Positions 8,049 to 23,503 of a DNA stretch of 64,000 nt are shown one piece after another. The notes below the pieces were generated by a model, which did no database searches, was not told the origin of the DNA, and saw only the letters and a list, made by a program, of their open reading frames with translations. The stretch comes from an uncultured Clostridia bacterium (GTDB lineage: Bacteria > Bacillota > Clostridia > Christensenellales > CAG-138). Position numbers and translations under genes: made by a program. The DNA lies in the NCBI GenBank assembly GCA_946185305.1, contig CAMHJE010000002.1, positions 9,263-73,262 of the forward strand. The letters are read 5' to 3'. Within the stretch, counting starts at the first letter, position 1. Every line of letters starts with the position of its first letter.

Positions 8049-8077
8049 GACAATAGTTTTGTATCATGTTGTTTGTG
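8049..8077 (+). promoter_or_regulatory. sigma-70-like promoter for DUF6076-like gene
   Basis: TTGACA (8049-8054), 17-nt spacer, TATCAT (8072-8077). A ggagaat-ctgt-attctcc inverted repeat (8101-8118) lies between the promoter and the RBS. Confidence 0.5.
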
Positions 8078-8134
8078 ATGATGTGAATACTCCAAATTCA
8101 GGAGAATCTGTATTCTCCAAAAGTGAGGGACAAG

Positions 8135-9691
8135 ATGGATCAAGAAAAAGACTATTCCGAATACGAATTAACGGCGTATGACCGGTATCGGATGCGGCGG
8201 AAGCACCGGAAAGATATTATCTTGGGATATTTCCATAACAAGGTTCGTTTCGATACAGAAAAGCGAATGATCCGCTTTTATGTTGATGATCTGCATGAGA
8301 ATTATTCGATGGACAGCATGATCGACGAATACCTTGCCGAAGAAGAAAAGCGGCGTGGCGCCAAGCTGAAGGACGAGCCGGAAGACAAGGAATATGCTGC
8401 TGCGGAAGTCAAGAAGAATCGGGAGCAGTATGCCCTGCTTCAAAAGAAATACGACATAGAGCGTATGTCGTCGCATGGCGATCCGACCGATTTCTCGTAT
8501 TATCCGACGGATGAAAACGGCAACATTGATTACGAAGCCGAGGAGCCGATTCGTAAGCCGATGAACGATGTGCTCAGCGGAACATGCGTGACCATTCGAT
8601 ATGGCGAAGGAATCTTGGATTTCGTATATGCGGATCTCGTCACGCCGATGAAGGAAAGATACGCTATGTATCGGTTGTTCCGTAAAATACGGGAGAAAGG
8701 AATTGTCGATCTTTCGGAAACAGAACCTGCCGAAGAAGATAAACCGGAAAAGGTGTATAACCGGACGCAGGAGATTGTAGAGCATTACTTTCAGTTTTGC
8801 TCCACCTGCGATGATCTCGGCGATGCGTTGTATGCTTCCCTCTACTCCGCATTGTTCCCGCCGTGCTTTGTTGGATATGACGCGGATACGGATAAAACGA
8901 TGGGGCGGTATGCGGATTATCTGGTAACGCTGCAAAAGGAGTATCGGGAACTCCTTGAGTTCGTTTATGATGAAAACTTCCATCCCGAAGTACTTGGAAA
9001 CCTCTATCCCAGCGAACGATACCGGTTGTATCGGGAAATACATGATCTGCCCGATTTTTATATCCGTCGGGAGGAATTGATGATTTCTCCCGAATATATG
9101 GGCAGTCCGAAGCGTATGCCGTTCGGGATGGAGCACGAGGAATATCTCAACAGAATCATGAAGGCATTTTCCTCGAATTCAACCGAAGCAGAAAAAGCAT
9201 TTGCAGAAGAATACGGATTGGACGCTGGGCACCTTACCATGATGATCCGCCGACCGTCCTTTATGAGCATTCAATACGATGTTTCCACCGCAGCAGAGAT
9301 GTTGGAATTGGAGTTTACGAAGATGCTCGAAGAAAACATTCGCTTTCGCAAATGCAAACGCTGCGGAAAGTATTTCATCATGAAGGGCAATTACGACACA
9401 AACTACTGTGACCGGATCGCAGAGGGCAGCACGCGCACCTGTCAGGAACTTGCGGCAATCGAGAACTACAGAGCGAAGGCAGCGGAAAACAAGGAGTACG
9501 CGCTATACAGCAAATACTACAAACGCTATTCTGCCCGCGTGAAGGTGCGACAGATCAAGGAAGCCGATTTCAAGAAATGGAAGTATCAGGCACTTACGAA
9601 GCGTGATGAATGCGCCGACGGCAAGATCACGGTTGAGGAATATGAAGCGTGGCTCGAAGCGTCATTTGCGAACCGGCAAAAGAAAGGCTGA
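8135..9691 (+). CDS. hypothetical protein, DUF6076-like with C-terminal zinc-ribbon (CKRCGKYF...YCDR...TCQ)
   Basis: 518 aa and acidic, with a conserved-looking C-terminal Cys cluster followed by a basic helical tail. This type of protein commonly sits beside serine recombinases in Clostridia (recalled, not searched). ATG 8135 is preceded by GAGGGA. Confidence 0.4.
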   Translation: MDQEKDYSEYELTAYDRYRMRRKHRKDIILGYFHNKVRFDTEKRMIRFYVDDLHENYSMDSMIDEYLAEEEKRRGAKLKDEPEDKEYAAAEVKKNREQYALLQKKYDIERMSSHGDPTDFSYYPTDENGNIDYEAEEPIRKPMNDVLSGTCVTIRYGEGILDFVYADLVTPMKERYAMYRLFRKIREKGIVDLSETEPAEEDKPEKVYNRTQEIVEHYFQFCSTCDDLGDALYASLYSALFPPCFVGYDADTDKTMGRYADYLVTLQKEYRELLEFVYDENFHPEVLGNLYPSERYRLYREIHDLPDFYIRREELMISPEYMGSPKRMPFGMEHEEYLNRIMKAFSSNSTEAEKAFAEEYGLDAGHLTMMIRRPSFMSIQYDVSTAAEMLELEFTKMLEENIRFRKCKRCGKYFIMKGNYDTNYCDRIAEGSTRTCQELAAIENYRAKAAENKEYALYSKYYKRYSARVKVRQIKEADFKKWKYQALTKRDECADGKITVEEYEAWLEASFANRQKKG

Positions 9692-9843: not shown

Positions 9844-11436
9844 TTACAGGCTGAAATCAGCCGTGTTATCACGTTGATAGGAACACCAGTTGCCGTTTTC
9901 GATCAGTTCTTCGCGCGCGATCAATCGAAGCAGCGCATCGGATTCGCCGAAACGGTCAATGCGAGCGAGGACTGCGGCATAAAAGCGCTCCATTTTGACA
10001 TGATCGGATGTTGTGCGCGAAAGCGACAGGCGGCCGTGATAGTTTGAGATAAACAGCGTTGCCGCCGAAATGCTGCCGAGCAGCAGCTTGGACAGCGTGC
10101 GATAGAATTCGGCGTTTGCGATTTTCTGCGAAAACGGCAGCAATCCGCCCCAAATGAGCTCGAAGAGCAACACCGCAAGATACAGCAGAATACTGACCCA
10201 AAGAGCAACGCGGACGATGCGTTCGCTCCCCTTGTCTGCTCGCTTTGACCGACGGACAGACCGTTCGTGATACCTGCGCTGCGCGTCGACCCATGCATCA
10301 CGGATGCGATTTGACCGATCCGGCGGAATGCCGACGGACAGGGCCTTCAGCGCGGCAAAGGTCCATCCGGTTTCCGTCTTGCCAGTCCACGGCAAAACAT
10401 CGGCGGCGGAAATGCCGCTTCCGGCATAGCGCAAAAACGCCTGCACGCGCAGTCCCTCCGCCAGCATCCGATATTCGAGATAGCGCCGGTGCGAAGCAAA
10501 GCGGTTTCCGTACCGCTGCACAAGCCATGCAAGCAGAAGCATCCCGCCGCAAACGAGGATCATCCCGTGCAATTCGGCTTCGTCATACAGAAGAAACGCG
10601 ATCGTGATGACCGTGCTGATGATCGCAAGCGCGGCAAGAATGCGGCGGTACTGTTTAGAAAAGCGAACGCTCAAAGAATCCGCCTTTGCATACAGGGTTT
10701 CTATACGGTCGAGCTGCTTGTCCGGTTCCCGATCCGACGGCAGCAGCGCAAATTCGGATGCGGGCGCTATTTTCGCAAGCCGGTTGAACTCATCGGTTCG
10801 GGTCAGCGTTTCGTCAAAAGCGGTACGGTCGCCGAGAAAACGCACCGCTCCGGCGGCACTCGTTTCGTCGTCTTTACGCGGTGAAAGGATATGCAGCACG
10901 GGGCAGCAGCCGCCGAGCGGGATCGAATTCTGCGGTGCAAACGCGCCGTCCAAGGCGCAATGCACAATTGCCGCCGTGCCGCAGTCGGAAGCGAGCGACT
11001 CCGCTCCGTCCCACAGCGCGAGCAGCACATGGGCGTGCGAAGCAACATAGACGCCCGCCTGCCGATACGCAAAGTCCCGATCCTTCGACGCCGGTGCGCA
11101 TTCCGTGTCGGGCGCAACAAAACAGTCTTCCGCCGCGTCGCAAAGGGCCCGGAAGGCGGGAAGCGCTTCCCCGGAAAAGTCCTTTTCATATTCCGTCTGC
11201 GCCATCGGCAATACTGCGATCAGCGGGATCGAGAGCGACAGCGCGGCCTCGGCGCAAAGCTGATCTGCACCGTCCGCAAGGCTGTTTTGCATCACGATTT
11301 CGGAATGCGGACACCGGCTTTGCAGCGCCATGAGCTCCTGTTTGACTGCGTTGTATAAAACGTCGCGGTCCTCCGTGCGGATGTCCCGGTGTCCCGTTAC
11401 CCCGACGACGATCGGGATCGTATCGTGCAATGTCAT
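9844..11436 (-). CDS. SLOG-like Rossmann domain fused to two SLATT-type 2TM modules (predicted nucleotide-gated membrane effector)
   Basis: N-terminus IPIVVGVTGHRD ... SLADGADQLCAEAALSLSIPLIAVLP ... HVLLALWDG...GT resembles the YpsA/DUF2493/LOG (SLOG) clade. Two hairpin TM pairs follow: ILAALAIISTVITIAFLLY + GMILVCGGMLLLAWLV, and VRVALWVSILLYLAVLLF + LLLGSISAATLFISNY. Each pair is followed by an amphipathic helix (HRRYLEYRMLAEGLRVQ). ATG 11436 is preceded by AAAGGAGA. Confidence 0.6.
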   Translation of the reverse strand: MTLHDTIPIVVGVTGHRDIRTEDRDVLYNAVKQELMALQSRCPHSEIVMQNSLADGADQLCAEAALSLSIPLIAVLPMAQTEYEKDFSGEALPAFRALCDAAEDCFVAPDTECAPASKDRDFAYRQAGVYVASHAHVLLALWDGAESLASDCGTAAIVHCALDGAFAPQNSIPLGGCCPVLHILSPRKDDETSAAGAVRFLGDRTAFDETLTRTDEFNRLAKIAPASEFALLPSDREPDKQLDRIETLYAKADSLSVRFSKQYRRILAALAIISTVITIAFLLYDEAELHGMILVCGGMLLLAWLVQRYGNRFASHRRYLEYRMLAEGLRVQAFLRYAGSGISAADVLPWTGKTETGWTFAALKALSVGIPPDRSNRIRDAWVDAQRRYHERSVRRSKRADKGSERIVRVALWVSILLYLAVLLFELIWGGLLPFSQKIANAEFYRTLSKLLLGSISAATLFISNYHGRLSLSRTTSDHVKMERFYAAVLARIDRFGESDALLRLIAREELIENGNWCSYQRDNTADFSL

Positions 11437-11449
11437 TTCGTCTCCTTTG

Positions 11450-13480
11450 TCAATCAAGCCGATAGATGCGCAGTCCGTCGAACTTGCGGATCAGCTTCAG
11501 CATGGAGTTGAACGGCTTCCAGTCCTTGCCCTGATCCTTCTCGGACAGGTTGAGATAGTGCCGCGCGATCTCCAGCTCCCCAAAATCGCCGTTCATACAC
11601 AGCTTGTGCTGCCGCATCTGCTCCCGCAGCGCATAGCGGTTCGGCTCGTCGTCTGTCGTTACGGTCTCATACAGGCTTCCTGCCGTCCAGCCCATCGCGC
11701 GGTGCGCGCGCACCCAGCGGGCATGCTCCATCGGCGCGAACACGGCGGTCTGCTCGGGGGTGAATGCGCGCAGCATTTCAAAGTCCACGGGGCGATCCGT
11801 ATAGAAGCAGCCGATCGCGTTCAGATATTTCGAAAAGCTCTTGACCTGATTGATATTGCTGAGCTGATATTCGAGCGACATGGTATCAAAATCGCGTTCG
11901 AGCTGCTCTGCCGAGATCTCGTCCTCCCGGCCCTCATACCGATAGCGGCCGTTAATCGCCACCGCAAAATCATACATGTGCAAAAAGCTGCTGCCGGACA
12001 GGTACGTATGCTTGCTCTTGCGATCCGCCGTGCGTATGAACGTCGTGATGAACAGCGGATAGCCGCTTAGATCGACGATCTTTTCAATGTCCGTGCGGAA
12101 GCGCTGTTCGGTTTCCGCCATGTCGCTGTACGCTTTGAGGCGCGGCGGCGCATCCTGCCGGTCGCCCTGCTCCCATGCGCGGTAGCGCGCTTCATATTCT
12201 CCGATCTTTTCGGACTCCTCCGCGTCGAAGCAATAGAGCGCATGGATCATGCCTCTGCCGAAATCGAACTCGGCGTCCATCGGATGCAGTTCGGTGCGTG
12301 AATTCCGACCGTAAGCGGTGCGATCCCAACATTGCAGTTCGTCGCACAACATCAAAAGGTATGCAAGCGGATGCAGCTCAGCCTTCAAGGGTGCTTTATG
12401 CTTTTCCTTATCCTTATAAAACGCAATCGCAAACTTAAACAGGCTGTTGTGCAGCATGATCGCGGTCAATGCATCGACGTGCGCTTCGGTCAACGCCTCT
12501 TCGCCGAGCACCTCGCAAAGCTCCTGATACAGCCGCGTCGCGGAAAAGTATGCGTGATCCATGAAGTACCCGAACCGGTTCGGCTCGGTCGGCTTGCGGC
12601 GGATCGTGTCGCAAAGGTATTCCTCCGTCACCTCGTAAGCCGCGCCGAGGCGCTTGGCAATGCCGTAGGCAAGCAAATCTTCGACGGACTCGAACGGACG
12701 GGAAAACAGCTTTGCAAAGTGCGCCTTTTGCGCGTCGCTCATGCCGGACAGACAATCGAGGTCGCGGTAGGCAAGGTACAAGCTGCCCTTGCCGCGCTTC
12801 TTGCGATCCACCTCAAAGTAGGCCAACACCTGCTCGAACGGGATCTCAAACGGATAGCCGATATCGTGGAACAGCGAGGTCAGGCCCCAGTATTCGAGAA
12901 AGAATGCCGCCGCCCGGTGCTCGTCCGTTCCCGGCGCAAAGCCGTAGAAGCGTTGGAACGTCGTCCGGAACTGCTCGTTCGTTTCATAGATCGCAAGGCC
13001 GAGCGCAAACACGTAGACCGAATGCGAATAGTGGTCGCGGTGCTTCATCAAAAGGGAGCTTGCGTTGGACTCAAATTCCGACAAAAGCTCGATCATCTTG
13101 CTCGACCGCCCATAGGTGCCGAGGAACATCTTCAAAAAGCTGTAATAAACGGTGTAGGCGTCCTCGGCAACACCGGAATCGATGAAGGCTTCCAGCTCGC
13201 GCTCGAGGCAAAGCCGGTCGATGTCCATCTGCATATTGTACGGAATCTGATTCGGATAAAAGCTTGTGCCGAGATACTGCCCGGTTTGCTCCTCCTTCTT
13301 TGCGATCTCCGGCGAAAAGCGCAGCCCCTCGCACCGCTCGTGCAAAAACCGCAGCGCAGCGGACTTCAGATCGCTGCCCGTTCTGCCCGCGCCGAACATC
13401 GCCGGTTCAAACGGACCGACATCCACGTTATAGCGTTCTTTGTTGATCCTTCGCATCTGTTCTAAAGCCGTGTATGCCAT
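11450..13480 (-). CDS. HD-superfamily phosphohydrolase fused to tandem C-terminal RyR domains
   Basis: HD motifs: HYSHS (about aa 150), LFHDIGYP (about aa 205), MLHN (about aa 343), LCDELQCWDR (about aa 379). C-terminal repeats: FAVAINGRY...LEYQLSNINQVKSFSKYLNAIGC and MEHARWVRAHRAMGWTAG...HKL...YLNLSEKDQGKDWKPFNSMLKLI..GLRIYR, matching the RyR-domain pattern. GGAGGA RBS. Confidence 0.65.
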   Translation of the reverse strand: MAYTALEQMRRINKERYNVDVGPFEPAMFGAGRTGSDLKSAALRFLHERCEGLRFSPEIAKKEEQTGQYLGTSFYPNQIPYNMQMDIDRLCLERELEAFIDSGVAEDAYTVYYSFLKMFLGTYGRSSKMIELLSEFESNASSLLMKHRDHYSHSVYVFALGLAIYETNEQFRTTFQRFYGFAPGTDEHRAAAFFLEYWGLTSLFHDIGYPFEIPFEQVLAYFEVDRKKRGKGSLYLAYRDLDCLSGMSDAQKAHFAKLFSRPFESVEDLLAYGIAKRLGAAYEVTEEYLCDTIRRKPTEPNRFGYFMDHAYFSATRLYQELCEVLGEEALTEAHVDALTAIMLHNSLFKFAIAFYKDKEKHKAPLKAELHPLAYLLMLCDELQCWDRTAYGRNSRTELHPMDAEFDFGRGMIHALYCFDAEESEKIGEYEARYRAWEQGDRQDAPPRLKAYSDMAETEQRFRTDIEKIVDLSGYPLFITTFIRTADRKSKHTYLSGSSFLHMYDFAVAINGRYRYEGREDEISAEQLERDFDTMSLEYQLSNINQVKSFSKYLNAIGCFYTDRPVDFEMLRAFTPEQTAVFAPMEHARWVRAHRAMGWTAGSLYETVTTDDEPNRYALREQMRQHKLCMNGDFGELEIARHYLNLSEKDQGKDWKPFNSMLKLIRKFDGLRIYRLD

Positions 13481-13507
13481 GTTGCGTCCTCCGTTTTGTG
13501 TATTGGT

Positions 13508-14914
13508 TTACCGAATCTGCTGTCCATAAGGCGGGCAATAACCGCCGCCGTCCGTTTGCGAATAATAGACCCAGTATAGATGCCCTTCGTAGCCGACCTT
13601 CAAGGTGCTCCATTCCGCGTCGTCGATCGTTTCACCCTCTTCATATTCCGGTACAAAGCCGAAATGCGCCTGCAGCGCTTCAGGCAGAGCGCGGAACACA
13701 TCGACAAGCTTGCTCCCGATATGACCGTTTTCGGTGCGGATTTCATCCAGCACCGGCAAAACAAGCGCGTCGATCGCCGCAAGGTCGCCATTCTTTTGCA
13801 GCCGCTTCACCGCAATCTCCAACGCAAACACACGGTATGTCCAGTCCGGATGCAGCTTGACAATTTCGATCAGTTTTTCCGTCGGAAATGCCGAAAGGCG
13901 GCGCTCCCATTCATCCCTCGAACGACCGCGTCCCATTTTCAAAAGGTCGTTCATCAGCTCGTCGTTGATCGCGCTTTGCGGCAATCGCCGCACGATCTCC
14001 AGCTTGTCCTCGCTTCGATGCTCGTCAAGCATTCCGTACAGCCCTTTCAGATGCGCTGCATCCAGCAAGCCGAGCGCAAGGTTCCGACAAATCGTGCTTT
14101 GCGCCGCGAGGTGCCGCACCAATACATCCTGCTGCGTGTCCGTCAGCGGCGGCAAGCCTTGCCCCTTGCCGTCGTACAGCCAATACAGCGTGCTTGCGGC
14201 TTCCCGGGAAAGATCAGCGTCACGGCTTTGCTCCAAGAGTGCAATTAAGCGGGACGGCTCCGCCAATACTCGCGTGACCGCATATTCCGAACCCTTCAGT
14301 TCGCCGCAAAGGCTCATTCGCAGCACAGCATTTTGAAACGCTTCGCCGCAATGCTGATCCGGCTGCTGCGCCCGCTTCAGCACCGCTTGCGTAACGGCGT
14401 AATCGACGTTCGCGGTCAGCAGGCGCAAAAGCGCGTCTTCGCTGTTGATTTTGGCAACGGCGTCCCAAGCGGATTCGGTCACTTCCCGATCAAGCAGCAG
14501 TTTCAAAAGAGCCGCCTCGTCCGGCGCTGCGGCGATCGCCTTCGTTTCATGCTCCCGCAACAGCGCAACGGTCTTTGCTTCGACCGGGTAGAGACTTGCC
14601 GTTTCCCGGCTCCAATGCTTTGCCGAGGCCTTGACCGCAAGCAAGTACGCACGCTCCTTCGGCATTCGCTCGAACGCGGCCATGCGAACCTCTGTCCGGG
14701 CGTCCGATGTGACGATCTCTAAAAGCGCTTCGGGATCCTCGATCCCGTCGATCACGGACTGTGCGAGCGGCAGCAGTTCCTGCTGCCGACAGGCGATCGC
14801 GCATACCGCTTTTTCCGCGTCGATTTTCAGCAACTTACTGTACAGCCGCTTTCCCCAAACCGGCACGTGTTCGTTTTGGCAGAGTCGGGCGATCCTTTCA
14901 AACTGTTTTGTCAT
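13508..14914 (-). CDS. hypothetical helical-repeat (HEAT/PBS-lyase-like) protein
   Basis: 468 aa and mostly alpha-helical. Recurring ..D.EALL.L(L)......VR.AA motifs (EDPEALLEIVTSDARTEVRMAAFERM; DEAALLKLLLD; SEDALLRLL). Short Gly/Tyr-rich C-terminal tail. ATG 14914 is preceded by GGGAGG, 10 nt after the upstream stop. Confidence 0.4.
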   Translation of the reverse strand: MTKQFERIARLCQNEHVPVWGKRLYSKLLKIDAEKAVCAIACRQQELLPLAQSVIDGIEDPEALLEIVTSDARTEVRMAAFERMPKERAYLLAVKASAKHWSRETASLYPVEAKTVALLREHETKAIAAAPDEAALLKLLLDREVTESAWDAVAKINSEDALLRLLTANVDYAVTQAVLKRAQQPDQHCGEAFQNAVLRMSLCGELKGSEYAVTRVLAEPSRLIALLEQSRDADLSREAASTLYWLYDGKGQGLPPLTDTQQDVLVRHLAAQSTICRNLALGLLDAAHLKGLYGMLDEHRSEDKLEIVRRLPQSAINDELMNDLLKMGRGRSRDEWERRLSAFPTEKLIEIVKLHPDWTYRVFALEIAVKRLQKNGDLAAIDALVLPVLDEIRTENGHIGSKLVDVFRALPEALQAHFGFVPEYEEGETIDDAEWSTLKVGYEGHLYWVYYSQTDGGGYCPPYGQQIR

Positions 14915-14924
14915 GCCCGCCTCC

Positions 14925-17900
14925 CTATTCGATTTCCAGTTCAAATCCGTATTCGTCGCCCAGGGATCGAATCGCGGACTGCATATTGTTTGACACACAC
15001 GCCGCACGAAGATGCTGCAGCGTCAAAAGCGGCGAAATGTCGGTCAGTTCCGGCGTCCATGATACCTTGATGTATTCGAGTTCCGGGTGCTGCTCGATGA
15101 AGCTTCGGAATGTCTCGTTGGTGAAGCGACAGCCGCCCGCGTGAATCTCGTGGATTTTCACATCCTTCACGGCGTCCATCCAAAGCGCGCAGTCCGTGTT
15201 GAACACATTGAGACTTTGATACTCCGGCACGGCGGACAGCACCGCATACTGCTCACCCGGGATTTTCCCCTGCAAATTATCTACGCCGAGAACAAAATAT
15301 GGCACATTGCCGTCCTCGTCCGGCGTCATACAGAACGTATAGTCGATTTTGGCGATCGCGCTGATGTCCGTGAGGTCGTTGCCACCGATATTGAGATCGG
15401 TCAGATGCGGAAGCTTCTCAACGCCCTCGATCGAAGTGACCGTTTCCGTGTCCTCCACGCTGATGATCTCGAGCGTCTCCAGATCGAACAGCGGAGACAG
15501 ATCGGAAAGATTTGCCCATTTGGCTTGGAATCGGCGCAGCTTTGCAGCCGCCTCGATCCCGCCGAGCGATTCGATCGGCTGTCCGTATAGATACAGCGTT
15601 TCAAGATTCGGAAGTCGATTCAAAAATGCAAGATCGGCAATCGATCCTTCCCCGATCGGGAAGCGCTCGCCGGTTGCGTTGTCGTGAATATACAAGTCCG
15701 GTTTGTCGCCGCCGTCCCAGTCCTCTTCGAGCCACAGTTCGCCCCACGGATCTTTCGTTACATAGTTGCCGAAGAACCCGACCTCGCGGATGCGGGACAG
15801 CACGTTGTCCGGCAGGGCAAGGAACTCGTCTTTGGTCATCAACGGGATTTCGAAAGCAAAATCACAGTCCTCCGAAATCGCACCAAGTGGGGTGAGATCG
15901 TCGAGCTTGAGTCCGTTCAGATCTGCCCGTTGCAGCTTCTGGAGGTTTTGGATGCCTTGTATGCTTGTCACGCCGGTATATTGCAGCCGAAGCTCTTCCA
16001 GCTCCTGCAGAGTGAATGCCGGGGAAGCATCCGTCAGGGTCGGCGTGAACGAAAGTTCGAGATTCTTCAACTTCTGCAGATTCTGAATCCCCTCGATCGA
16101 CGTCAGCGACTGATCGATCAGGTTCAGATATTCGAGTCCGGTCAGCTTGGACAGCTTGGAAAAATCGGTCATTGTACCGGGGTGCTCGATTGCGATATCA
16201 TGGCTGGGGTCACCGTCGTTCGACCGCAGTACAAAGGTCGGTTTGTCGTCATCCCATTGCTGATCGAGCCAATATTCCTCCCAGGAGAAGATCGTGTCGC
16301 CGACTGCATGCAGATCCTTCACGCGGCTCAATACCGCGCTTGGCAGCGTGTCGAGCTCGTCGAACGACAAGAGCTTCACGTCAAACTCGGCGGGTTGCCA
16401 CCATTCGTCCGGATAGACGACCTCGTAATTGCGGAAATTACCACTGTCCACAAGCAGCTGCGCCTGCTCCTGAAGATGCGCCGGGACCTTCAGCACGTTG
16501 CCTTTTTTGATCCCGTACAGCGGGGAAAGGTCGGTCACGTCGTTGGTTTCGATCAGCTCGATCGAAACGCTCTTTTCGGGGTTCATGCCGTCGAAGCACT
16601 GCAGATCATGGAGATCGACCGGCGTGCAAAGCGAGATCCAATCCGCTTCGAACGTCAAGAAATCGGGCAGGGTAAAGGTGCTGTCCAGATAGATCTGGTT
16701 GAATTTCAATCCGTTCATCGCTGACCAGTCAGTCAAGCGCGGACAGCCGGTGATTTCCAGATACAGCGTGCCGTAGCGCGTAGCAAGCAGGTTCTGAATA
16801 CCGTCGAGCGAGGTTAAAAGCTGCGAATCGTCAATGATCAACCGATGCAGCGAAAGCTCCGGCATGCCCGAAAGCGACACGACGCCGTGCAGCAGCAGCT
16901 CCTGGGAGACATGCGGGAACAGCGACCAGTCGAGCGGTTCTCGGCTCCAATCGCTGTAGCCGCTGCGGCACCAAAGCTCAAATTCGTGGATTGTCGCATT
17001 CTTGATATAGGGCAAGGCGCTGCCGGTGCGGTCTGTGACGTTCAGATAGTTATAGTTTTTGATCGCTTCCAGTCCCGACCAGTCCTCCACCTCGGCAATG
17101 CCGAAGGAAAAGCCGTCCTTGTTGACGACATCCCAAAGGAAATTGACATCGTGCAGATCGGAGCCGTAGATGGCAAGATCGTTAAGGTGCGGCAGCTTCA
17201 CGATCGGAGAGATGTCCGCAAGATCGAAGACGCGATTCAGGTGAACCTGCTGAATTCCCGTGCAGCTTTCGAGCGCGGAGATGTCGGAAAGATGATCAAG
17301 CCCCTCGATATACACGCGCCGCAGACTTGTATGGTCTTCCAGGCCATGCAGGTTCCGGACGCTGTGCATACCCCAAAGGGCCAGTTCTTCGAGATTCTTT
17401 GCGTTTTCGAGCCAAGAAAGGTCGGACAGCGCATCGTTGTGCAGGTCAACGAATTTCAGACTTGTATTGTCCGAAAGCGCGGACATGTCAGATAGGTCTT
17501 CGCTTTGATAATCCACAAACAGGCGCGTCAGGCTTTGATGATCCTGCAGCCCGTTGATGCTTCGAAGCTCCGACAGGTTCACAAGCTCCAGTTCGCGGAG
17601 CTTCTTGGACGCGGAAAGACAGTCGAGATCGGTCAAAGGCAGACTGTCGAGCCGAACGAGCGAAAGCTCGGAACAGTTTTGCAGACCGGACAGGTCGATC
17701 ATCCGTGCCGTGCTGTCGGTGTCAAGGTAAAGCTCGGTCAAATTCGGCGGTCCGAAGGACGTCAGATCGGAGGGGATCGGATCGAACAGCGTCAGATTCG
17801 CATAGCGAAGCCGTTCGCAATCGGACAGCGGCGAAAAGTCCGTCAAAGAATTGCCGGAATAGCCGAAGCTGCGGATGCGCGTGTGTTTCAACCCGGCAAG

Positions 17901-18773
17901 GCTCGTGACGCCACAATCGAACAGCTCGACAACGTCAAGCTGTTCCAGTCCGGACAGCTCGGGAAGCTCGCCAATGACCCGCACCAGTGTGATGAACTTC
18001 ACATTCTTCATGTACCGCAAAAAGTCGAGATCGTTCCATTCCGCCGTCCCGATCTCGTGTCCATCCTCCTTGCTGTACCAATGCCTTTTGCCTTCCTCCT
18101 CGGTGCGGTTGACAAAGTACTCCGCGCCGATACGCGCCCAGCCGTTCTGCTTCGCAATCCCCTCATCACCGGTGAAGTAGTGCAGCGTATCGCCGACGAT
18201 GATCAGCTCATAGACCTTTTCGAGATCCTCGGCGGTAAGCCCCGCTTCGGAGGGAATGACCGGTTCCGCCGTCGGCGCGGGTGTGCTCTCCGGCAGCATC
18301 GTTTCCTTTGCGGGCAGCAGTTTTGTTGCAAGGAAGATACCTCCGGCGATCACGAGCGCGGCGGCAGCGGCCGCAAGGATGATCGGCAAAGGCTTTTTTG
18401 TTGCTTCAAACGGCTTTGCGGTTGCGATACGCTGTGCAAGCTCTTCTACGGAGTACCGTTCGGCGAAGATCGTGTTGCGGGAATACAGCGCGTTTTTCAG
18501 CAGCTCCGGCGGCGTTGAGCCGTCGAGGTTTATCGGCACCGTCTCCACGCCCTTCGCGTCATTGGCGAAGAACGTTTCCATAAGTGTGATGGCTTCGTTC
18601 AGTCGTTCGGACATGAACAGCAGCATGACGCCGCTTTTCTTCGGCATTTCGCTTTCGTCTGCGATCGGAAATCCCTTTGCCCGCAGCGCATCGAGGATCG
18701 GTGCGACGCGTTCTTTGTCGGCTTTGGCATAAAGGGGAAACAACTTCATTTTTCGGTACGTCATCTTTGCCAT
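14925..18773 (-). CDS. TIR-like domain / single TM / very large leucine-rich-repeat ectodomain protein (1282 aa)
   Basis: N-terminus KLFPLYAKADKERVAPILDALRAKGFPI...VMLLFMSERLNEA (divergent TIR-like fold, no signal peptide). TM PLPIILAAAAAALVIAGGIFLATKLL and a Pro/Thr linker. About 1,100 aa follow of internalin-like ~22-residue LRRs (L..L..L..L.L....L.D(I/L)S.L) in at least three modules. No LPXTG motif. Confidence 0.65.
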   Translation of the reverse strand: MAKMTYRKMKLFPLYAKADKERVAPILDALRAKGFPIADESEMPKKSGVMLLFMSERLNEAITLMETFFANDAKGVETVPINLDGSTPPELLKNALYSRNTIFAERYSVEELAQRIATAKPFEATKKPLPIILAAAAAALVIAGGIFLATKLLPAKETMLPESTPAPTAEPVIPSEAGLTAEDLEKVYELIIVGDTLHYFTGDEGIAKQNGWARIGAEYFVNRTEEEGKRHWYSKEDGHEIGTAEWNDLDFLRYMKNVKFITLVRVIGELPELSGLEQLDVVELFDCGVTSLAGLKHTRIRSFGYSGNSLTDFSPLSDCERLRYANLTLFDPIPSDLTSFGPPNLTELYLDTDSTARMIDLSGLQNCSELSLVRLDSLPLTDLDCLSASKKLRELELVNLSELRSINGLQDHQSLTRLFVDYQSEDLSDMSALSDNTSLKFVDLHNDALSDLSWLENAKNLEELALWGMHSVRNLHGLEDHTSLRRVYIEGLDHLSDISALESCTGIQQVHLNRVFDLADISPIVKLPHLNDLAIYGSDLHDVNFLWDVVNKDGFSFGIAEVEDWSGLEAIKNYNYLNVTDRTGSALPYIKNATIHEFELWCRSGYSDWSREPLDWSLFPHVSQELLLHGVVSLSGMPELSLHRLIIDDSQLLTSLDGIQNLLATRYGTLYLEITGCPRLTDWSAMNGLKFNQIYLDSTFTLPDFLTFEADWISLCTPVDLHDLQCFDGMNPEKSVSIELIETNDVTDLSPLYGIKKGNVLKVPAHLQEQAQLLVDSGNFRNYEVVYPDEWWQPAEFDVKLLSFDELDTLPSAVLSRVKDLHAVGDTIFSWEEYWLDQQWDDDKPTFVLRSNDGDPSHDIAIEHPGTMTDFSKLSKLTGLEYLNLIDQSLTSIEGIQNLQKLKNLELSFTPTLTDASPAFTLQELEELRLQYTGVTSIQGIQNLQKLQRADLNGLKLDDLTPLGAISEDCDFAFEIPLMTKDEFLALPDNVLSRIREVGFFGNYVTKDPWGELWLEEDWDGGDKPDLYIHDNATGERFPIGEGSIADLAFLNRLPNLETLYLYGQPIESLGGIEAAAKLRRFQAKWANLSDLSPLFDLETLEIISVEDTETVTSIEGVEKLPHLTDLNIGGNDLTDISAIAKIDYTFCMTPDEDGNVPYFVLGVDNLQGKIPGEQYAVLSAVPEYQSLNVFNTDCALWMDAVKDVKIHEIHAGGCRFTNETFRSFIEQHPELEYIKVSWTPELTDISPLLTLQHLRAACVSNNMQSAIRSLGDEYGFELEIE

Positions 18774-18809
18774 GGTGGGCCTCCTTGTCCTGTGCTAAGG
18801 GGAAATGGG

Positions 18810-19985
18810 TTACGGGACTAAAATGACATCGAACGCCGCATCGTCCGGGAAGATCAGCAGCAGCATATCGATACTCACAGTCACGGTCTCAAGCGATGGC
18901 TGTGCGTTCAGCACGGAAAGGTCGCGCACATTGCTGTGCTCCAGATGGAGGGTTTTAAGGCTCGGCAGAACCGGCAGCGTCGAAAGGTCCACGCGTTCGC
19001 ACCCCGCAAGGTTCAGTTCGTTCAGCAGCACAAGCCGATTGAGCGCGGCAAGCGACTGTACCGGCTGCATGAGAAGAGAAAGCGCCTTTAGATACGGCAT
19101 GCGCCCGATCACGGAAAGATCCTCGACAGGACCCGTCAGCGGCTTTGCGCCGTTTACGGCGTATGCGCCGTCTGTGAAAGCGACACCGGATAAATCGTTC
19201 AGCACCATCGTGCCGCAAAAATGCAGTTCCGTCACGCCGCCGAGATCGGACAGTGTTATATCGCCATCAGGAATACCCAGCGCGTTGCGCACCGCTGCTT
19301 CCTGCTTTGCATCGGGGAACGCGACCGTATCCATGCCGGGAACATACGGTGTCGCCGTCGGCTCCGGCGTTTCGGTCGGCACAGGCGTGGGGGTCGGCGT
19401 CAGTCGTGCCGTAGGTACGGGTGTCGGGTTTGGCAGGAGATAGGCGTCCAATCGACCGGTCATAAGCGCATACAGACCTGCCGCTGCAGCGGCAAACAGC
19501 AGCATCGCAAGCACAAGCATCAACCAATCAAACCGCAGTTTTTCAAACGGCTTGCGATAATATGCGCGCGTGATCTGTTTGCAGGAAAGAATGGTTTCGG
19601 CACGCGCAGATGCATCGGAACTGGACGAAAGCCTTGTGCATTGTGAAAGCAGATCGTTCCATTCTGCGTTCGGCGCCGTATCCGAAAGCGGCAGCAGCAG
19701 AACCGGCTTCTTCAGAACAAGCGCTGCTTCGATCTCGCTTCGGCAGTTGGGTGAAGCAAAAGCTGTTTCGGAAACAAAGAACAACACCATAGAGCAGCTT
19801 TGCATATGCTCTTCGATGTTCTTCGGCCAATCGCTGCCCGCCGGAATGCCCTCGTCGTACCACAGTCGCAGTTTGCGGTTGTGCAGCAGTGTAATGGCTT
19901 TCAGAACCGCTTCGGAATCGCGGTGCGAATAACTGATGAAAAGATAGGGACGGCGACCCTCATATGGCTTAAAGTAGACGCTCAT
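18810..19985 (-). CDS. TIR domain / single TM / PT-linker / LRR ectodomain protein (391 aa)
   Basis: Canonical bacterial TIR_2-type motifs: RPYLFISYSHRDSEAV, RLWYDEGIPAGSDW, MVLFFVSETAFASPNCRSEIEAAL (candidate catalytic Glu at aa 84). TM WLMLVLAMLLFAAAAAGLYALM, then PNPTPVPTARLTPTPTPVPTETPEPTATP, then FPDAKQEAAVRNALGIPDGDITLSDL followed by LRRs. The ATG overlaps the upstream stop (ATGA). Confidence 0.8.
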   Translation of the reverse strand: MSVYFKPYEGRRPYLFISYSHRDSEAVLKAITLLHNRKLRLWYDEGIPAGSDWPKNIEEHMQSCSMVLFFVSETAFASPNCRSEIEAALVLKKPVLLLPLSDTAPNAEWNDLLSQCTRLSSSSDASARAETILSCKQITRAYYRKPFEKLRFDWLMLVLAMLLFAAAAAGLYALMTGRLDAYLLPNPTPVPTARLTPTPTPVPTETPEPTATPYVPGMDTVAFPDAKQEAAVRNALGIPDGDITLSDLGGVTELHFCGTMVLNDLSGVAFTDGAYAVNGAKPLTGPVEDLSVIGRMPYLKALSLLMQPVQSLAALNRLVLLNELNLAGCERVDLSTLPVLPSLKTLHLEHSNVRDLSVLNAQPSLETVTVSIDMLLLIFPDDAAFDVILVP

Positions 19986-20791
19986 GATCCGCCTCCCGTC
20001 AGCACGATATCATACCGTTCGAGAAGCGGAGCGGCATCGACCGCGTTCGTCTGATTCAGTTCAATTCGGGAAAGATTGGAAAGCAGGGCAAACTCATCCG
20101 TGCGTTCGGGTAAAGTGTCAAAACGAAGTGTCGTAACCGTTACAATCGACTCTTCGGTGATCGGTTCGCCGCTGAGCGCGTCGCGTACCGCTGCAGTCAG
20201 AACGGGATCGGAAAAGAAAACAGTATCACCATTTTTTTCGATCGATGGCGCGCGAAGACGTCGTACAAGAACCGCTGCGCCGATCAGCAGAAACGCCGCG
20301 GCGACAATTGCGGCTGCGATCGCAAGAACAGCCTTTTTGCGAACGGGCAGCGGAGGGCCGATCAACTCATGCGAAAATCCGTCTGCATGGAGCAATGCTG
20401 CTTCCGCCGCATCGACGCTGCACAGCTTGATATGCACTGCGCGCGAATCCAACCCCATGGACAGCGTGCTTTCCGCATTATCTACGTCGACGCTGATGAT
20501 CGGGATGCTTTTCTCCTGACAAACGAGTACTGCGCTCTTTACCGCCTGATCCGTACGCGCACGTTTGGTTTGATACAGAACCACAAGCCGTGCCTTGCGC
20601 ATACGCGCATCGCGCCGTTCGCGCTCTGCTACGGTGCCGCTGTGCCCCGTGGGGTACCAGATGCGGCAGCCGCGTTCGTACAGCCGTCGAAACAGCGGCC
20701 GCAGCCGATCTTTATCCGCATCTGAAAAGCAAAAATACAGATACGGCTGATCGCCGCCGTACGGCGGAAAAAGCTCCGAAAACCTCGCCAT
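19982..20791 (-). CDS. TIR-like domain / single TM / short LRR-type ectodomain protein (269 aa)
   Basis: QPYLYFCFSDADKDRLRPLFRRLYERGCRIWY parallels the PYLFISYSHRD...WYD motifs of the neighbouring TIR. TM AVLAIAAAIVAAAFLLIGAAVLV. C-terminal DPVLTAAVRDALSGEPITEESI... LRR-cap-like segment. ATG 20791 is preceded by GGGGAGGA. Confidence 0.6.
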   Translation of the reverse strand: MARFSELFPPYGGDQPYLYFCFSDADKDRLRPLFRRLYERGCRIWYPTGHSGTVAERERRDARMRKARLVVLYQTKRARTDQAVKSAVLVCQEKSIPIISVDVDNAESTLSMGLDSRAVHIKLCSVDAAEAALLHADGFSHELIGPPLPVRKKAVLAIAAAIVAAAFLLIGAAVLVRRLRAPSIEKNGDTVFFSDPVLTAAVRDALSGEPITEESIVTVTTLRFDTLPERTDEFALLSNLSRIELNQTNAVDAAPLLERYDIVLTGGGS

Positions 20792-20825
20792 TCGTATCCT
20801 CCCCGCGCGCTCCGCTTTTGCTTCT

Positions 20826-20869
20826 ATACTACCAAAATATATCGTATACGCAAATGCTGTTTCTGTCAA
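20826..20869 (-). promoter_or_regulatory. candidate promoter of the TIR-LRR/SLOG operon
   Basis: On the minus strand: TTGACA (20864-20869), 17-nt spacer, TACGAT (20841-20846). A second TGgTAGTAT extended -10 lies at 20826-20834. Confidence 0.4.
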
Positions 20870-20991
20870 TCCCAAATGTAAAAAGCGCCAGAACTGTTAC
20901 AGTTTCAAGTCAGACGCCATGCGTATCCATCTGCTTCCGTACCGATGGTTCCGCGCTCCTTCATTTCCTAAGAGCGGTTCTCAATCGGTGC

Positions 20992-21018
20992 AAAGAAAAA
21001 GGCGCATTGCTGCGCCTT
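20992..21018 (-). terminator. orphan Rho-independent terminator (minus strand) in intergenic region
   Basis: Perfect 8-bp stem aaggcgca / tgcgcctt with a ttgc loop. On the minus strand it is followed by TTTTTCTTTG. No annotated minus-strand gene lies upstream of it. Confidence 0.5.
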
Positions 21019-21164
21019 CGAGCATCTTGTCTGATATTCAAAAAACATGCGGAGAAAACACTCTGCTTTCTCCACATATCCTTAGCCCTTACTGCAAAGC
21101 CCGATATGGATTATTTGCTTCCTTATCGGTGTCCCGCAATACCGGGCTTTTTTCGCATTGAGAA

Positions 21165-21193
21165 TTGACAGCCGCAGACGAAGCCGCTATACT
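21165..21193 (+). promoter_or_regulatory. sigma-70 promoter of mscS-like gene
   Basis: TTGACA (21165-21170), 17-nt spacer, TATACT (21188-21193). Confidence 0.6.
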
Positions 21194-21284
21194 GAAATCG
21201 AAGAAAAAGCAAGCTATGGGCTTTTTGCGTTTGCGGTAGCTTCACCTGCCGGCCGCATTTTTACACCCTCGAAAGGAGACTCCC

Positions 21285-22160
21285 ATGAAAAAAAGAAATC
21301 CTCTGATCCGCGTCGCCGTCCTTTTGGTGATCGGCGTGCTTGTGTACATCTTAGGCCGCAGTCTCGGCTGGATCGACCCGGTTCCCAAGCTCCAATGGAA
21401 CGGGGAACGGATCGTCAACGGGCTTTTGCTGCTGCTCGGCCTGCTGATTCTGGAGGGCATCGTGAGCTTTATTCTCGACAAGCTCAACCCGAAGGGCAAC
21501 CGCACCAAAACGCTGATCGCGCTCGGCCGGAACATCATGCACTACGCGGTCGTGCTGCTGACGATCTGCATCCTTTTGACGATGCTGAACGTGGATATCG
21601 TGACGATTCTTTCCGGCCTCGGGATCATCGCGCTGATCATCGGCTTCGGCGCGGAAAGCCTGATCGCGGACGTGGTGACCGGCATGTTCATTCTGATGGA
21701 CAACCAGTATAATATCGGGGACATCATCGAGATCAACGGCTTCCGCGGCACCGTCACGGACGTGAGCGTCCGCACGACCGTGCTGACCGACGTGGGCGGC
21801 AACGTGAAGATCATCAACAATTCCGACATGAAGAATATTCTGAACCGGTCGGACAATACCTCCCGCTCGGTCGCGGAATTCGGTATCCCGTATGAAACGG
21901 ATCTCGAAGCCCTCGAGGAGAAGATCCCGGCGCTGCTGCAGAGCATCTATGACGCGCACCGCGATCTGATGAAGGATGTGCCGGTGTACGTCGGCGTCGA
22001 TCAGCTCGGCGACAGCGCTGTAGTGCTGAAGTTCGTCGTCGAGGTTGCCGAAAAGGATATCTACGCGGGCGCCCGCGTGCTGAACCACGACCTGTTTATC
22101 GGCATGCGCAAGCTCGGCGTCGAGGTGCCGTTCCCGCAGGTTGACGTGCATCAAAAATGA
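21285..22160 (+). CDS. mscS: small-conductance mechanosensitive channel (MscS family)
   Basis: Three N-terminal TM helices, then IIGFGAESLIADVVTGMFILMDNQYNIGDIIEINGFRGTVTDVSVRTTVL, the MscS beta-domain signature. AAAGGAGA RBS. Confidence 0.85.
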   Translation: MKKRNPLIRVAVLLVIGVLVYILGRSLGWIDPVPKLQWNGERIVNGLLLLLGLLILEGIVSFILDKLNPKGNRTKTLIALGRNIMHYAVVLLTICILLTMLNVDIVTILSGLGIIALIIGFGAESLIADVVTGMFILMDNQYNIGDIIEINGFRGTVTDVSVRTTVLTDVGGNVKIINNSDMKNILNRSDNTSRSVAEFGIPYETDLEALEEKIPALLQSIYDAHRDLMKDVPVYVGVDQLGDSAVVLKFVVEVAEKDIYAGARVLNHDLFIGMRKLGVEVPFPQVDVHQK

Positions 22161-23503
22161 AGCGCGTACACGACCTGCTGGGGCTCCCGCCCGAATACCA
22201 CGAGGACGGGCCGCCCGAATATACGACGCCGCCCGACGAGTATAACCGCTTCGCGCCGACCGAGCCGCCCGCCAAGGCGGGCAAGTCCCGGATGGTGAAG
22301 ATGCTGCTGCTCGCTGTGGCGGGGTTGTCGCTGCTCGGCGTGGCGCTGCCGGGTTTTTCGCTTGTGCCCCCGGCCGAACCGGAGCCGACGCCCGCCGCTG
22401 TTTCCCCCACCCCCGCGCCCGCCGTGGCGGTCGTGCCGGAGGAACGGTATACGGTACAGGCGTGGCACGAGCCGCCGTCCGGCGCAAGGGTCACGCTCAC
22501 ATGGGAAGGCGTCGGTGAAAGCGCCGACGGCGCCACGGGGCTTTCGGTGCCGGAGGGCGCGCGCGTGCGGCTGTCCTATGTCCCCGCGGTACCGTACACG
22601 ATGGAGGATGTATCGCTCGGCGGCGTGATGCTCGACGGCGCGATCACCCAAACCGACGACCCGCTGCTGTTCACGGTCGGCAAGGGCGGCGGCGTGATCC
22701 ATTTCTACCTGAACTACCCGTCCGATGGAGCGCCAACACCCACGCCCGAGCCGACGCCGGAGCCAACGCCTGCGCCGACGCCGGAGCCGACGCCCGGCGT
22801 GACGATCACCTATTACCGCCGCTCCGCGGTCTACGAAGCCTTTGCCTACTGGACGATGCCGGAGCAGATGGAATCGGTGACGGTTCGGCTGACCGATCCC
22901 TATATGGGCACGATCTTCGAGCATGAACTGACCGCCGAGGAGGTCGCATTCGGCTATTATGAGCTGAACCATTTTGACCTGTATAACTATCTGTTTACGA
23001 ACGGCTTTTCCTTCGACAATCTGCCGTCCGACTACGATCCGAACCCGCTGCTGGAGGTGACCTACGCATACGGTGAAAACGGGCCGGCCGGTACGGAAAC
23101 CGCCGAAGCCGCATATGAAATGTGGGTCAATCTCTCCTACGACGACCCGGACGATGATATGTCGTGGATATGGGGCAGCTACTATCCCGACTGCTTCGTG
23201 GTGCGCATAGAAGACCGGCTGAACTATGATGGGCTGAAGATCTATTACGGTGAGCAGGATGAGCTGTCGCCCGGCGACGTATGGGTAAAGGTCACGGTGG
23301 ACGGACAGGATATTCCGGCGGAGACGTGCCGGTTGGTGCTCGAACCGTATGAGGAAGCGAACGGCGAGGTGTACTATGCCTACACGTTCGTCATGCCGCG
23401 CCCCGACACCTTCCCCGAACACGGCACCGCGCACTTTGTGATCACGCAAAAGCTTGTGCATTACGATACGACGGTAACGCGCGAGCGGGATTATACGTAC
23501 TAA
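22157..23503 (+). CDS. hypothetical single-pass membrane protein with Pro-rich N-terminus and PT-rich linkers
   Basis: ATGA overlap with the mscS stop. TM MVKMLLLAVAGLSLLGVALPGF. PTPTPEPTPEPTPAPTPEPTP linker. No recognisable catalytic motif. Confidence 0.5.
   Translation: MKRVHDLLGLPPEYHEDGPPEYTTPPDEYNRFAPTEPPAKAGKSRMVKMLLLAVAGLSLLGVALPGFSLVPPAEPEPTPAAVSPTPAPAVAVVPEERYTVQAWHEPPSGARVTLTWEGVGESADGATGLSVPEGARVRLSYVPAVPYTMEDVSLGGVMLDGAITQTDDPLLFTVGKGGGVIHFYLNYPSDGAPTPTPEPTPEPTPAPTPEPTPGVTITYYRRSAVYEAFAYWTMPEQMESVTVRLTDPYMGTIFEHELTAEEVAFGYYELNHFDLYNYLFTNGFSFDNLPSDYDPNPLLEVTYAYGENGPAGTETAEAAYEMWVNLSYDDPDDDMSWIWGSYYPDCFVVRIEDRLNYDGLKIYYGEQDELSPGDVWVKVTVDGQDIPAETCRLVLEPYEEANGEVYYAYTFVMPRPDTFPEHGTAHFVITQKLVHYDTTVTRERDYTY

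Follow-up and report, generated by a model that had tools for sequence, protein, structure and literature searches.

What function could unite three membrane-anchored TIR proteins with leucine-rich repeat (LRR) ectodomains, an HD-type enzyme carrying a RyR domain and a SLOG protein carrying four transmembrane (TM) helices? Genes encoding such proteins are clustered on the minus strand of a 64,000-nucleotide (nt) stretch of DNA from an uncultured Clostridia bacterium (GenBank contig CAMHJE010000002.1, positions 9,263 to 73,262). This whole stretch is referred to as the window; coordinates are positions in the window, and the cluster genes are numbered g1 to g6 from 5' to 3' on the minus strand. 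In the original prediction, the six genes were viewed as an undescribed system in which TIR-made nucleotides gate a SLOG-SLATT membrane effector. The cluster is real and non-random, and the original interpretation holds up in broad outline. Homologous loci fetched from other genomes, which are designated by L-numbers, indicate that the g1, g2, g3, g5 and g6 families travel together as a mobile cassette. Its conserved core, as judged from these loci, consists of a TIR-TM-extracellular-repeat protein (LRR or beta-propeller), an HD-RyR protein and a SLOG protein with four TM helices (SLOG-4TM). We put the probability that the cassette is a Thoeris-like TIR second-messenger conflict system with membrane-receptor sensors at roughly 0.6.

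Domain architecture of the cassette proteins

The first three genes on the minus strand, g1 (19982-20791, 269 residues), g2 (18810-19985, 391 residues) and g3 (14925-18773, 1282 residues), encode what profile comparisons identify as paralogous type-II membrane proteins, predicted to feature a cytoplasmic N-terminal TIR fold that a single TM helix connects to an LRR ectodomain outside the cell. In g2, the TIR domain spans residues 14-123 (Pfam TIR_2, E = 4.6e-17; ThsB_TIR, E = 5.9e-4) and is also matched, weakly, by PADLOC models of ThsB-like TIR proteins (E = 2.5e-5 to 6e-3). It is followed by a single TM helix (residues 155-173), a Pro/Thr-rich linker and an LRR ectodomain matched by Pfam LRR_4, an organization that agrees with the canonical TIR/TM/LRR protein originally proposed. 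The N-terminus of g1 matches TIR_2 at E = 0.0038. For g1 and g3, profiles built from the N-termini and their homologues were aligned to the g2 TIR profile using hhalign, and the matches obtained (99.7% probability, E = 9e-26 for g1; 96.7% probability, E = 3e-10 for g3) identify all three as TIR-TM-ectodomain proteins. In g1, the TM helix (residues 158-176) is followed by an ectodomain of about 90 residues, which may contain one LRR-like unit. Thus, the TIR fold and the TM helix predicted for g1 are confirmed, while its short LRR is weakly supported (E = 6e-4, probability 30%). In g3, described beforehand as a TIR-like protein with a giant LRR region, a TM helix at residues 131-149 indeed precedes an internalin-type LRR ectodomain of about 1100 residues (LRR_4, E = 1e-21; internalin_A, E = 4e-29).

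The three TIR domains differ at the catalytic glutamate position. In g2 this residue is Glu84 (codon 19734-19736), which is kept in 25 of 29 g2-type homologues. The corresponding position is occupied by Ala, Ser, Arg or Asn, and never by Glu, in g1-type sequences across the family, and is variable in g3-type sequences (Asp in 15 of 34, Glu in 8 and Lys in 6). The pattern suggests that one TIR of the trio is probably an enzyme and the other two probably serve as scaffolds. Those of g1 and g3 appear degenerate; g2, the only member of the trio in the window to keep the catalytic Glu, is likely the signal-producing enzyme.

The distribution of charged residues around the TM helix is asymmetric. 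Five Lys/Arg residues precede the helix of g2 and one follows it; the figures are seven and two in a TIR-WD40 relative. According to the positive-inside rule, the TIR domain should be cytoplasmic and the repeats extracellular, which is the only orientation letting TIR reach NAD+. Pro/Thr-rich linkers that come after the TM helix favour the same topology. The g1 stop codon overlaps the g2 start codon by 4 nt, and the conservation of this overlap among homologous loci suggests that the two partners are co-translated. In L082 (8150-9862), a gene just upstream of g5 encodes an additional receptor-like protein, in which a TM helix links a Ser/Thr kinase domain to an LRR ectodomain.

The last gene, g6 (9844-11436, minus strand, 530 residues), encodes a protein in which, according to its AlphaFold (AF2) model (pLDDT 86.8), a cytoplasmic SLOG domain is joined to a membrane module of the SLATT type with four TM helices (4TM). 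It is predicted to be a signal-gated membrane effector. The N-terminal domain (residues 7-205, 10822-11418) adopts a YpsA-type SLOG fold in the model. Its closest Foldseek match is Bacillus subtilis YpsA (2nx2; E = 2.6e-4, probability 1.0, TM-score 0.60), followed by ShosA, DprA and the LOG-like protein TM1055, all members of the SLOG superfamily. A search of the PDB with the g6 sequence alone returned zero matches. The domain carries invariant GxxGH and GAD motifs, and residues G12, G15, H16, A54 and D58 are invariant across the family, 19 of 27 members of which are matched by the YAcAr profile.

Downstream, TM helices and family-level profile matches define a DUF4231/SLATT module with two TM helices (2TM; residues 240-337, 10426-10719). 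The DUF4231 profile matches 19 of 27 family members (best E = 9e-8); the window copy falls below the cut-offs of the SLATT profiles (DUF4231, 20.7 bits against 24.7; NCBIfam SLATT_3, 15.4 against 45). A second 2TM helical module (residues 379-496, 9949-10302) is defined by its TM helices, and profile self-comparison detects no significant resemblance to the first (E = 0.03). Hence, of the SLOG protein with two SLATT modules proposed earlier, the SLOG domain is retained, the first module is supported at family level, and the assignment of the second module to SLATT is not supported. Close homologues of g6 number in the hundreds, and 8,810 representatives in a library of 1.84 billion proteins match its profile. 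Full-length g6 was not found in the phage and plasmid collections searched, which yielded SLOG-domain matches only. In L030 (5426-9948) and L048 (4770-9947), g6 homologues have neither a TIR gene nor g5 nearby. Their upstream neighbours are either a 1059-residue clostripain-family (Peptidase_C11) protein together with a 443-residue protein, or a 1725-residue protein matching no Pfam model; these genes may represent alternative partner modules for the SLOG-4TM protein.

The g5 gene (11450-13480, minus strand, 676 residues) encodes a predicted cytoplasmic protein (AF2 model, pLDDT 81.7). An HD-type phosphohydrolase domain (residues ~145-390, 12311-13048) is marked by the motifs RDHxxH, FHDIGYP, DH, LHN and LCDELQCWDR, which are conserved in the family, as RDHxxH, FHD(I/V)GYP, DH, LHN and LCDELQxW, down to 25% identity. 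Matches to Pfam HD are sub-threshold (5 of 26 family members, best E = 3e-3; L052, E = 7.6e-4). On the basis of these motifs and sub-threshold matches, we assign g5 as a putative cytoplasmic HD-type enzyme. Foldseek comparison of the full-length model with the PDB and BFVD returned no significant match for the HD fold, the best being PPX C-terminal domains (E ~0.1); the multidomain query probably reduced sensitivity.

A RyR domain is located at the C-terminus of g5 (residues ~575-676, 11453-11758). A profile of diverse family members matches RyR Repeat12 (6uhi, E = 2.7e-19), RyR2, RyR3 and a RyR-like protein of Bacteroides thetaiotaomicron (3nrt, E = 1.4e-9) in the PDB, while a profile restricted to close homologues retrieved zero matches from the same database. 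Pfam RyR (PF02026) matches 13 of 26 family members, and a 575-residue variant, which takes the place of g5 in the operons of other genomes, matches RyR at E = 1.8e-15. The window copy taken alone has no Pfam match, RyR being non-significant, and no PDB match by sequence. One RyR domain is thus supported, but the tandem RyR arrangement originally proposed is not: the match to RyR structures is one single stretch, and profile self-comparison yields E = 0.18-0.28.

Phage RyR-domain proteins (RyDEP) bind 2'/3' cyclic ADP-ribose (cADPR) at nanomolar affinity or cleave its ribose-ribose bond (PMC13232231, a May 2026 preprint). Throughout the g5 family, the positions aligned with the ligand contacts of RyDEP show no variation; in g5 they are the His-x-x-Trp motif (H586-x-x-W589), H625 and D653. 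By this alignment, g5 keeps the residues by which RyDEP holds 2'/3'cADPR. The suggestion that the HD-RyR protein acts as a second sensor or as a signal-clearing enzyme consequently gains strong independent support. In Coriobacteriales/Actinomycetes metagenome-assembled genomes (MAGs), we found homologues that lack the SLOG domain and match only residues ~229-530 of g6 (L068, 8356-10909; L070, 2711-5294; L072, 10001-10612). In L068 and L070, this SLOG-less 4TM homologue directly follows a HD-RyR gene of the 575-residue type, a hint that the RyR protein can partner the membrane module directly. The 10-kb surroundings of these homologues yielded no TIR gene in L068, L070 or L072, where large upstream open reading frames (ORFs; 601-1043 residues) have no Pfam match.

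The TIR proteins could alternatively be effectors that deplete NAD+, with the SLOG-SLATT and HD-RyR proteins serving as parallel effectors or regulators that respond to NAD+ or ADP-ribose (ADPR) levels. Many bacterial TIRs are NADase effectors, as in CBASS, Pycsar, pAgo and Avs contexts, and only one of the three TIRs is catalytic. However, a single membrane-tethered active TIR is ill suited to bulk NAD+ depletion, and the cassette encodes both a SLOG and a RyR domain, the characterised relatives of which bind cyclic ADPR isomers specifically. We consider NAD+ depletion very unlikely.

Conservation, mobility and layout of the cassette

Surveying one genome per GTDB species, we obtained 74 g6 loci, nearly all from MAGs of ruminant gut Clostridia; 41 of them have enough flanking sequence for neighbourhood counts. 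Genes were mapped by tblastn and hidden Markov models, and those located within 10 kb of g6 were counted. At least one TIR gene is present in 33 of the 41 species-level loci (80%). Three TIR genes exactly are found in 16 loci, and four or five in 6. A g5 homologue is present in 29 loci (71%). TIR and g5 genes occur together in 26 loci, and both are missing in 5. Homologues of g6 at 55-67% identity lie in the same cassette, minus g4, in unrelated housekeeping neighbourhoods.

Gene order is permuted; for instance, g5 comes first in L026, L040 and L082. Where the LRR trio is absent, it is replaced by TIR-TM-WD40/PQQ beta-propeller proteins (~930-1050 residues), by TIR-TM proteins with BspA-type LRRs (LRR_5) or by TIR-TPR/Sel1 proteins. 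The minimal form consists of a TIR-TM-WD40 gene, g5 and g6 (L083). The recurrence of the g1, g2, g3, g5 and g6 families in dozens of species, with gene order permuted and contexts unrelated, bears out the notion of a functionally linked TIR/SLOG-SLATT/HD-RyR unit; the expected co-conservation holds for these five genes but not for g4. As to the two checks of genomic context that had been proposed, the TIR genes proved to be conserved neighbours, and most contexts are housekeeping regions.

These counts also bear on the possibility that the TIR-LRR genes encode internalin- or BspA-like adhesins and are chance neighbours of an unrelated SLOG-SLATT/HD-RyR pair. BspA-type LRR proteins are common surface proteins of gut anaerobes, and g3 scores against internalin models. 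The association of TIR genes with g6 in 80% of the loci despite shuffled order and varied ectodomains, the conserved g1/g2 overlap and the presence of an N-terminal cytoplasmic TIR, which has no role in an adhesin, all run counter to this explanation, which is strongly disfavoured.

The extent of the cassette was delimited by comparison with L005 (MAG contig JAFSPW010000057). Homology detected by blastn stops at positions 9825 and 21135, beyond which the flanks differ, indicating that the ~11.3-kb cassette (minus strand), 91-94% identical in the two loci, moves as a unit. The GC content of the cassette is 0.55-0.59, compared with ~0.60-0.65 for the chromosomal neighbours and 0.48 for an adjacent recombinase element. 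This element is part of a low-GC block (5388-9691, GC 0.46-0.51) that adjoins the cassette and is not found in L005. On the minus strand, the block encodes a large serine recombinase (Resolvase, Recombinase, Zn_ribbon and DUF4368 domains; 5388-7115) and a NikA-like mobilisation protein (7380-7805); its plus strand encodes a DUF6076 protein (8123-9691). It has the appearance of a small integrative mobilisable element that inserted next to the cassette. In L082, the cassette neighbours a phage-type integrase gene, ~6 kb from the kinase-LRR gene.

The genes of the window and of L005 do not vary to the same extent. While g1, g2, g5 and g6 are 92-96% identical, g3 is 75% identical, with values of 90, 97, 73, 40, 73, 73, 36, 51 and 96% in its first successive 100-residue windows. 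Two patches are hypervariable: residues ~300-400 (17574-17876), which are 40% identical, and residues ~600-800 (16374-16976), which are 36-51% identical. The flanking segments of g3 are 90-97% identical, and the mosaic hypervariability is confined to the ectodomain. This points to the LRR region as a site of cassette-like recombination or diversifying selection. Such outward-facing mosaic hypervariability has the look of a recognition surface under diversifying pressure.

Between g3 and g5, g4 (13508-14914, minus strand, 468 residues) interrupts the cassette. The description of g4 as a HEAT-like repeat protein had to be abandoned: no Pfam, NCBIfam or PADLOC model matches the protein, and self-comparison revealed no internal repeats. 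Only 8 homologues were found in 5.8 billion proteins, and a copy of g4 is present in L081. L005 lacks g4, and the DNA homology between the two near-identical cassettes is broken exactly at 13492/14920, delimiting a 1.4-kb insertion (13493-14919) that consists of a single gene with its own ribosome-binding site. Rarity and precise absence both exclude g4 as a system component. The system proposed as six genes is thus reduced to five (g1, g2, g3, g5 and g6), and minimally to three, g4 being a sporadic insertion and, judging from its distribution, an unrelated passenger, possibly with a defence or anti-defence role of its own. Relatives of g4 at 55% identity form a tandem pair (476 and 473 residues) beside a hipBA toxin-antitoxin module (L079/L080, 8520-11422). 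That locus also carries aconitase, isocitrate dehydrogenase and ACP genes, the genes found just upstream of the cassette in L001.

The layout of the locus agrees with the earlier description. Recomputed ORFs confirm six minus-strand genes separated by junctions of -4, 36, 10, 27 and 13 nt, each preceded by its own Shine-Dalgarno sequence of the GGAGG/AGGAG type, 6-9 nt before the ATG. The single upstream promoter that had been proposed, TTGACA-17-TACGAT, is present at 20869-20841 on the minus strand, 50 nt upstream of the g1 ATG, and matches the sigma-70-type consensus at 10 of 12 positions. Promoter-like sites are not in excess in the region (6, compared with 5.1 +/- 1.9 in shuffled sequences), so the support for this putative promoter is positional only. 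At the other end, g6 abuts, as predicted, a convergent gene, that of the DUF6076 protein. A strong terminator-like hairpin on the minus strand (20998-21019; 9-bp stem with 5 GC pairs, followed by a T-run) is located ~130 nt upstream of the promoter, in the ~490-nt gap between a divergent MscS-like gene (21285-22160, plus strand) and the start of g1. The hairpin and its T-run appear to insulate the operon from upstream transcription. The remainder of the window is ordinary chromosome, encoding AsnA, FakA, glycogen synthase, Mfd and ClpB, and Rfam and tRNA scans of the window returned zero matches.

A candidate outward-facing TIR signalling pathway

The Thoeris-like conflict system that we favour would operate as follows. 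An external ligand, most likely a phage particle or another surface-acting attacker, would bind the hypervariable ectodomains and cluster the receptors, and the degenerate g1 and g3 TIRs would scaffold the catalytic TIR of g2. The latter would convert NAD+ into a cADPR-type messenger. Binding of the messenger to the SLOG domain of g6 would cause the SLATT module to open or oligomerise, depolarising the membrane and arresting or killing the cell. The RyR domain of g5 would read the same messenger. Either the HD hydrolase would then act as a second effector, or g5 would degrade the signal with its HD domain and provide a built-in off-switch. Both roles, that of a second effector and that of an enzyme clearing the signal in two steps, are compatible with the data; a means of signal removal would be useful to a receptor exposed to stimulation from outside that is not followed by productive infection. 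The chain from TIR to nucleotide to SLOG-gated effector, as originally proposed, fits established Thoeris biology, with NADase activity, signal and phage defence as its inferred parts.

Several points weigh against this interpretation. Everything downstream of domain identity is inference. To our knowledge, infection is sensed intracellularly in the bacterial TIR and Thoeris systems characterised so far; as Thoeris TIRs respond to intracellular cues, an extracellular trigger is without precedent. No TIR gene is found within 10 kb of g6 in 8 of the 41 loci, and 5 of these 8 also lack g5. Most genomic contexts are housekeeping regions rather than recognisable defence islands. The g5 and g6 copies of the window fall individually below Pfam gathering thresholds, and the HD fold of g5 has no significant Foldseek or PDB support. 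The cluster is assigned to no system by NCBIfam or by PADLOC, the latter in a 2023 database release that predates Thoeris types III-XI; the ThsB matches of g2 are weak, as is its match to the NCBIfam model of Thoeris type III ThcB4 (17.8 bits against a cut-off of 220). Finally, two operons pairing TIR with a "SLOG and 4TM" protein gave no phage defence in E. coli (10.64898/2025.12.03.692087). The housekeeping neighbourhoods and this negative result are reasons for caution.

The same two facts count in favour of an alternative in which the cassette serves non-immune transmembrane signalling. In that case, the LRR and beta-propeller ectodomains would respond to a cue in the rumen, originating from the environment, the host, plant fibre or kin cells. 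A nucleotide made by TIR would gate the SLOG-SLATT protein as a regulated ion channel involved in physiology, dormancy or cell-cell recognition rather than in abortive infection, and the HD-RyR protein would reset the signal. The concentration of the family in ruminant-gut Clostridia fits this explanation, and a dedicated signal-degrading enzyme would suit reversible signalling. Moreover, extracellular sensing is typical of signal transduction, and one cassette includes a receptor Ser/Thr kinase-TM-LRR gene. On the other hand, the cassette is mobile, patchy and located at different sites in close relatives, mosaic hypervariability of ectodomains is typical of arms races, and all experimentally characterised bacterial pairings of TIR with SLOG/SLATT have so far been anti-phage. 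We regard non-immune signalling as unlikely.

Within the conflict-system interpretation, a bolder proposal can be put forward tentatively. Bacteria may have genuine surface pattern-recognition receptors, in which LRR or propeller ectodomains detect phage or another attacker before genome entry and TIR assembly yields a cADPR-type messenger that is read by a SLOG-SLATT pore and a host RyR enzyme. If outward-facing TIR sensors are real, bacteria can couple surface recognition to nucleotide second-messenger immunity, and the comparison of bacterial with animal innate immunity would gain a layer that it conspicuously lacks, one resembling Toll-like receptors. The surface-receptor reading, if correct, would provide a prokaryotic equivalent of signalling through Toll-like receptors and perhaps the evolutionary origin of animal cADPR-RyR coupling. 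Similarly, an HD-RyR protein that degrades the signal would represent the first host-encoded off-switch for TIR signalling. The cassette is the first host-side genomic context found for the RyR domain, which in phage counter-defence was reported in 2026 to bind or cleave 2'/3'cADPR. It makes testable whether RyR is a physiological cADPR receptor and whether TIR pathways carry their own signal-clearing enzyme. The hypervariable ectodomains constitute a natural library for mapping recognised targets, and the system is abundant in ruminant gut Clostridia, in which phage-host biology is little explored.

Relationship to known systems

The prediction that SLATT modules form nucleotide-gated pores reportedly originated in the comparative genomics of Burroughs, Aravind and colleagues in 2015. 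As restated in PMC7159879 and PMC9503650, SLATT is predicted to be a nucleotide-signal-responsive 2TM pore effector tied to TIR and other nucleotide-generating enzymes, with SLOG as the ligand sensor; neither paper was found to name RyR, HD-RyR or transmembrane TIR-LRR proteins as partners. Infection causes Thoeris TIRs to turn NAD+ into messengers, either cADPR isomers or conjugates of ADPR, which are read by effectors featuring SLOG (ThsA) or SLATT (ThsH) domains (10.64898/2025.12.03.692087). In type III Thoeris, several TIRs are combined with an effector of the SLOG kind (van den Berg et al. 2024, as cited in 10.64898/2025.12.03.692087). In type VII, TIR is paired with the SLATT effector ThsH, which responds to canonical cADPR (10.64898/2025.12.03.692087).

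The cassette resembles types III and VII in that one or more TIRs are encoded with a SLOG and/or SLATT effector, and a TIR messenger presumably acts on a membrane-disrupting or other effector. In terms of a generic Thoeris definition, g2 supplies a TIR with a catalytic Glu, and the same operon encodes effector candidates with signal-binding-type domains, SLOG in g6 and RyR in g5. In contrast to types III and VII, the TIRs of the cassette are membrane-anchored and carry large extracellular repeats, two of the three lack the catalytic Glu, SLOG is fused to a 4TM module in the effector, and the HD-RyR protein is an extra conserved component. As regards type VII specifically, the DUF4231/SLATT module that family-level matches indicate for g6 lies between an N-terminal SLOG domain and a further 2TM pair, and three membrane TIRs are present instead of a single TIR. 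Neither SIR2 nor Macro domains, as in the SIR2-SLOG or TM-Macro ThsA effectors of type I, were found by Pfam in the six proteins. The Thoeris models of PADLOC and NCBIfam do not match g5 or g6, and the cassette matches none of the curated models above threshold.

The operons that are closest in effector architecture are the TIR plus "SLOG and 4TM" operons of Streptomyces sp. GKU 895 and Ca. Nitrospira nitrosa, which are listed, unnumbered, among the systems tested in E. coli (Table S2 of the December 2025 preprint, 10.64898/2025.12.03.692087). Their effector, likened to g6 by architecture only, is likewise encoded next to TIR genes. A further cluster was identified in plasmid pSBC2-4 of Caballeronia sp. 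SBC2 (L087, record 20529-27929), which encodes a DUF4231 SLOG-SLATT protein (577 residues), a soluble TIR protein (539 residues) and a WD40 protein (1190 residues). The DUF4231, TIR and WD40 triad, in which the WD40 protein has one TM helix, is reminiscent of the cassette, but occurs in a distant phylum and has no RyR gene. Both kinds of cluster are unvalidated and unnamed; they differ from the cassette in having two or three genes, a soluble TIR and no RyR protein.

The C-terminal domain of g5 belongs to the same family as phage RyDEP (PF02026) and keeps the His-x-x-Trp, His and Asp ligand contacts of both RyDEP and animal RyR Repeat12. RyDEP proteins, which act as glycosidases or sponges for 2'cADPR/3'cADPR, are small, phage-encoded and anti-defence, whereas g5 is host-encoded in a TIR operon and carries its RyR domain fused to an HD-type enzyme of ~400 residues and middle domains.

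With animal Toll-like receptors, the cassette TIR proteins share a single-pass organization with LRRs outside and TIR inside, and the paralogues probably form hetero-oligomers in which non-catalytic TIRs serve as scaffolds. The domain order is different, LRR-TM-TIR in the animal receptors and TIR-TM-LRR, with the N-terminus inside, in the cassette proteins, which thus are not receptors of the animal type. In addition, the predicted output of the cassette is an enzymatic nucleotide signal as opposed to adaptor recruitment, and beta-propellers can replace LRRs. Common descent of the whole architecture is not supported by the evidence presented here.

A full-text literature search, the scope of which excludes most subscription-journal papers, retrieved no description of a TIR-TM sensor layer with extracellular LRRs or propellers, nor of a host-encoded RyR-domain protein in a TIR operon; given this scope, the lack of description is not proof of novelty. 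The claim of an undescribed system thus applies to the TM receptor layer and the host RyR protein, but not to the pairing of TIR with SLATT (type VII), of several TIRs with SLOG (type III) or of TIR with "SLOG and 4TM", which were already known or predicted. The logic that links TIR to SLOG/SLATT is familiar, and the cassette is best described, from its gene content, as Thoeris-like with two unusual and testable features, the predicted membrane TIR receptors and the host RyR protein.

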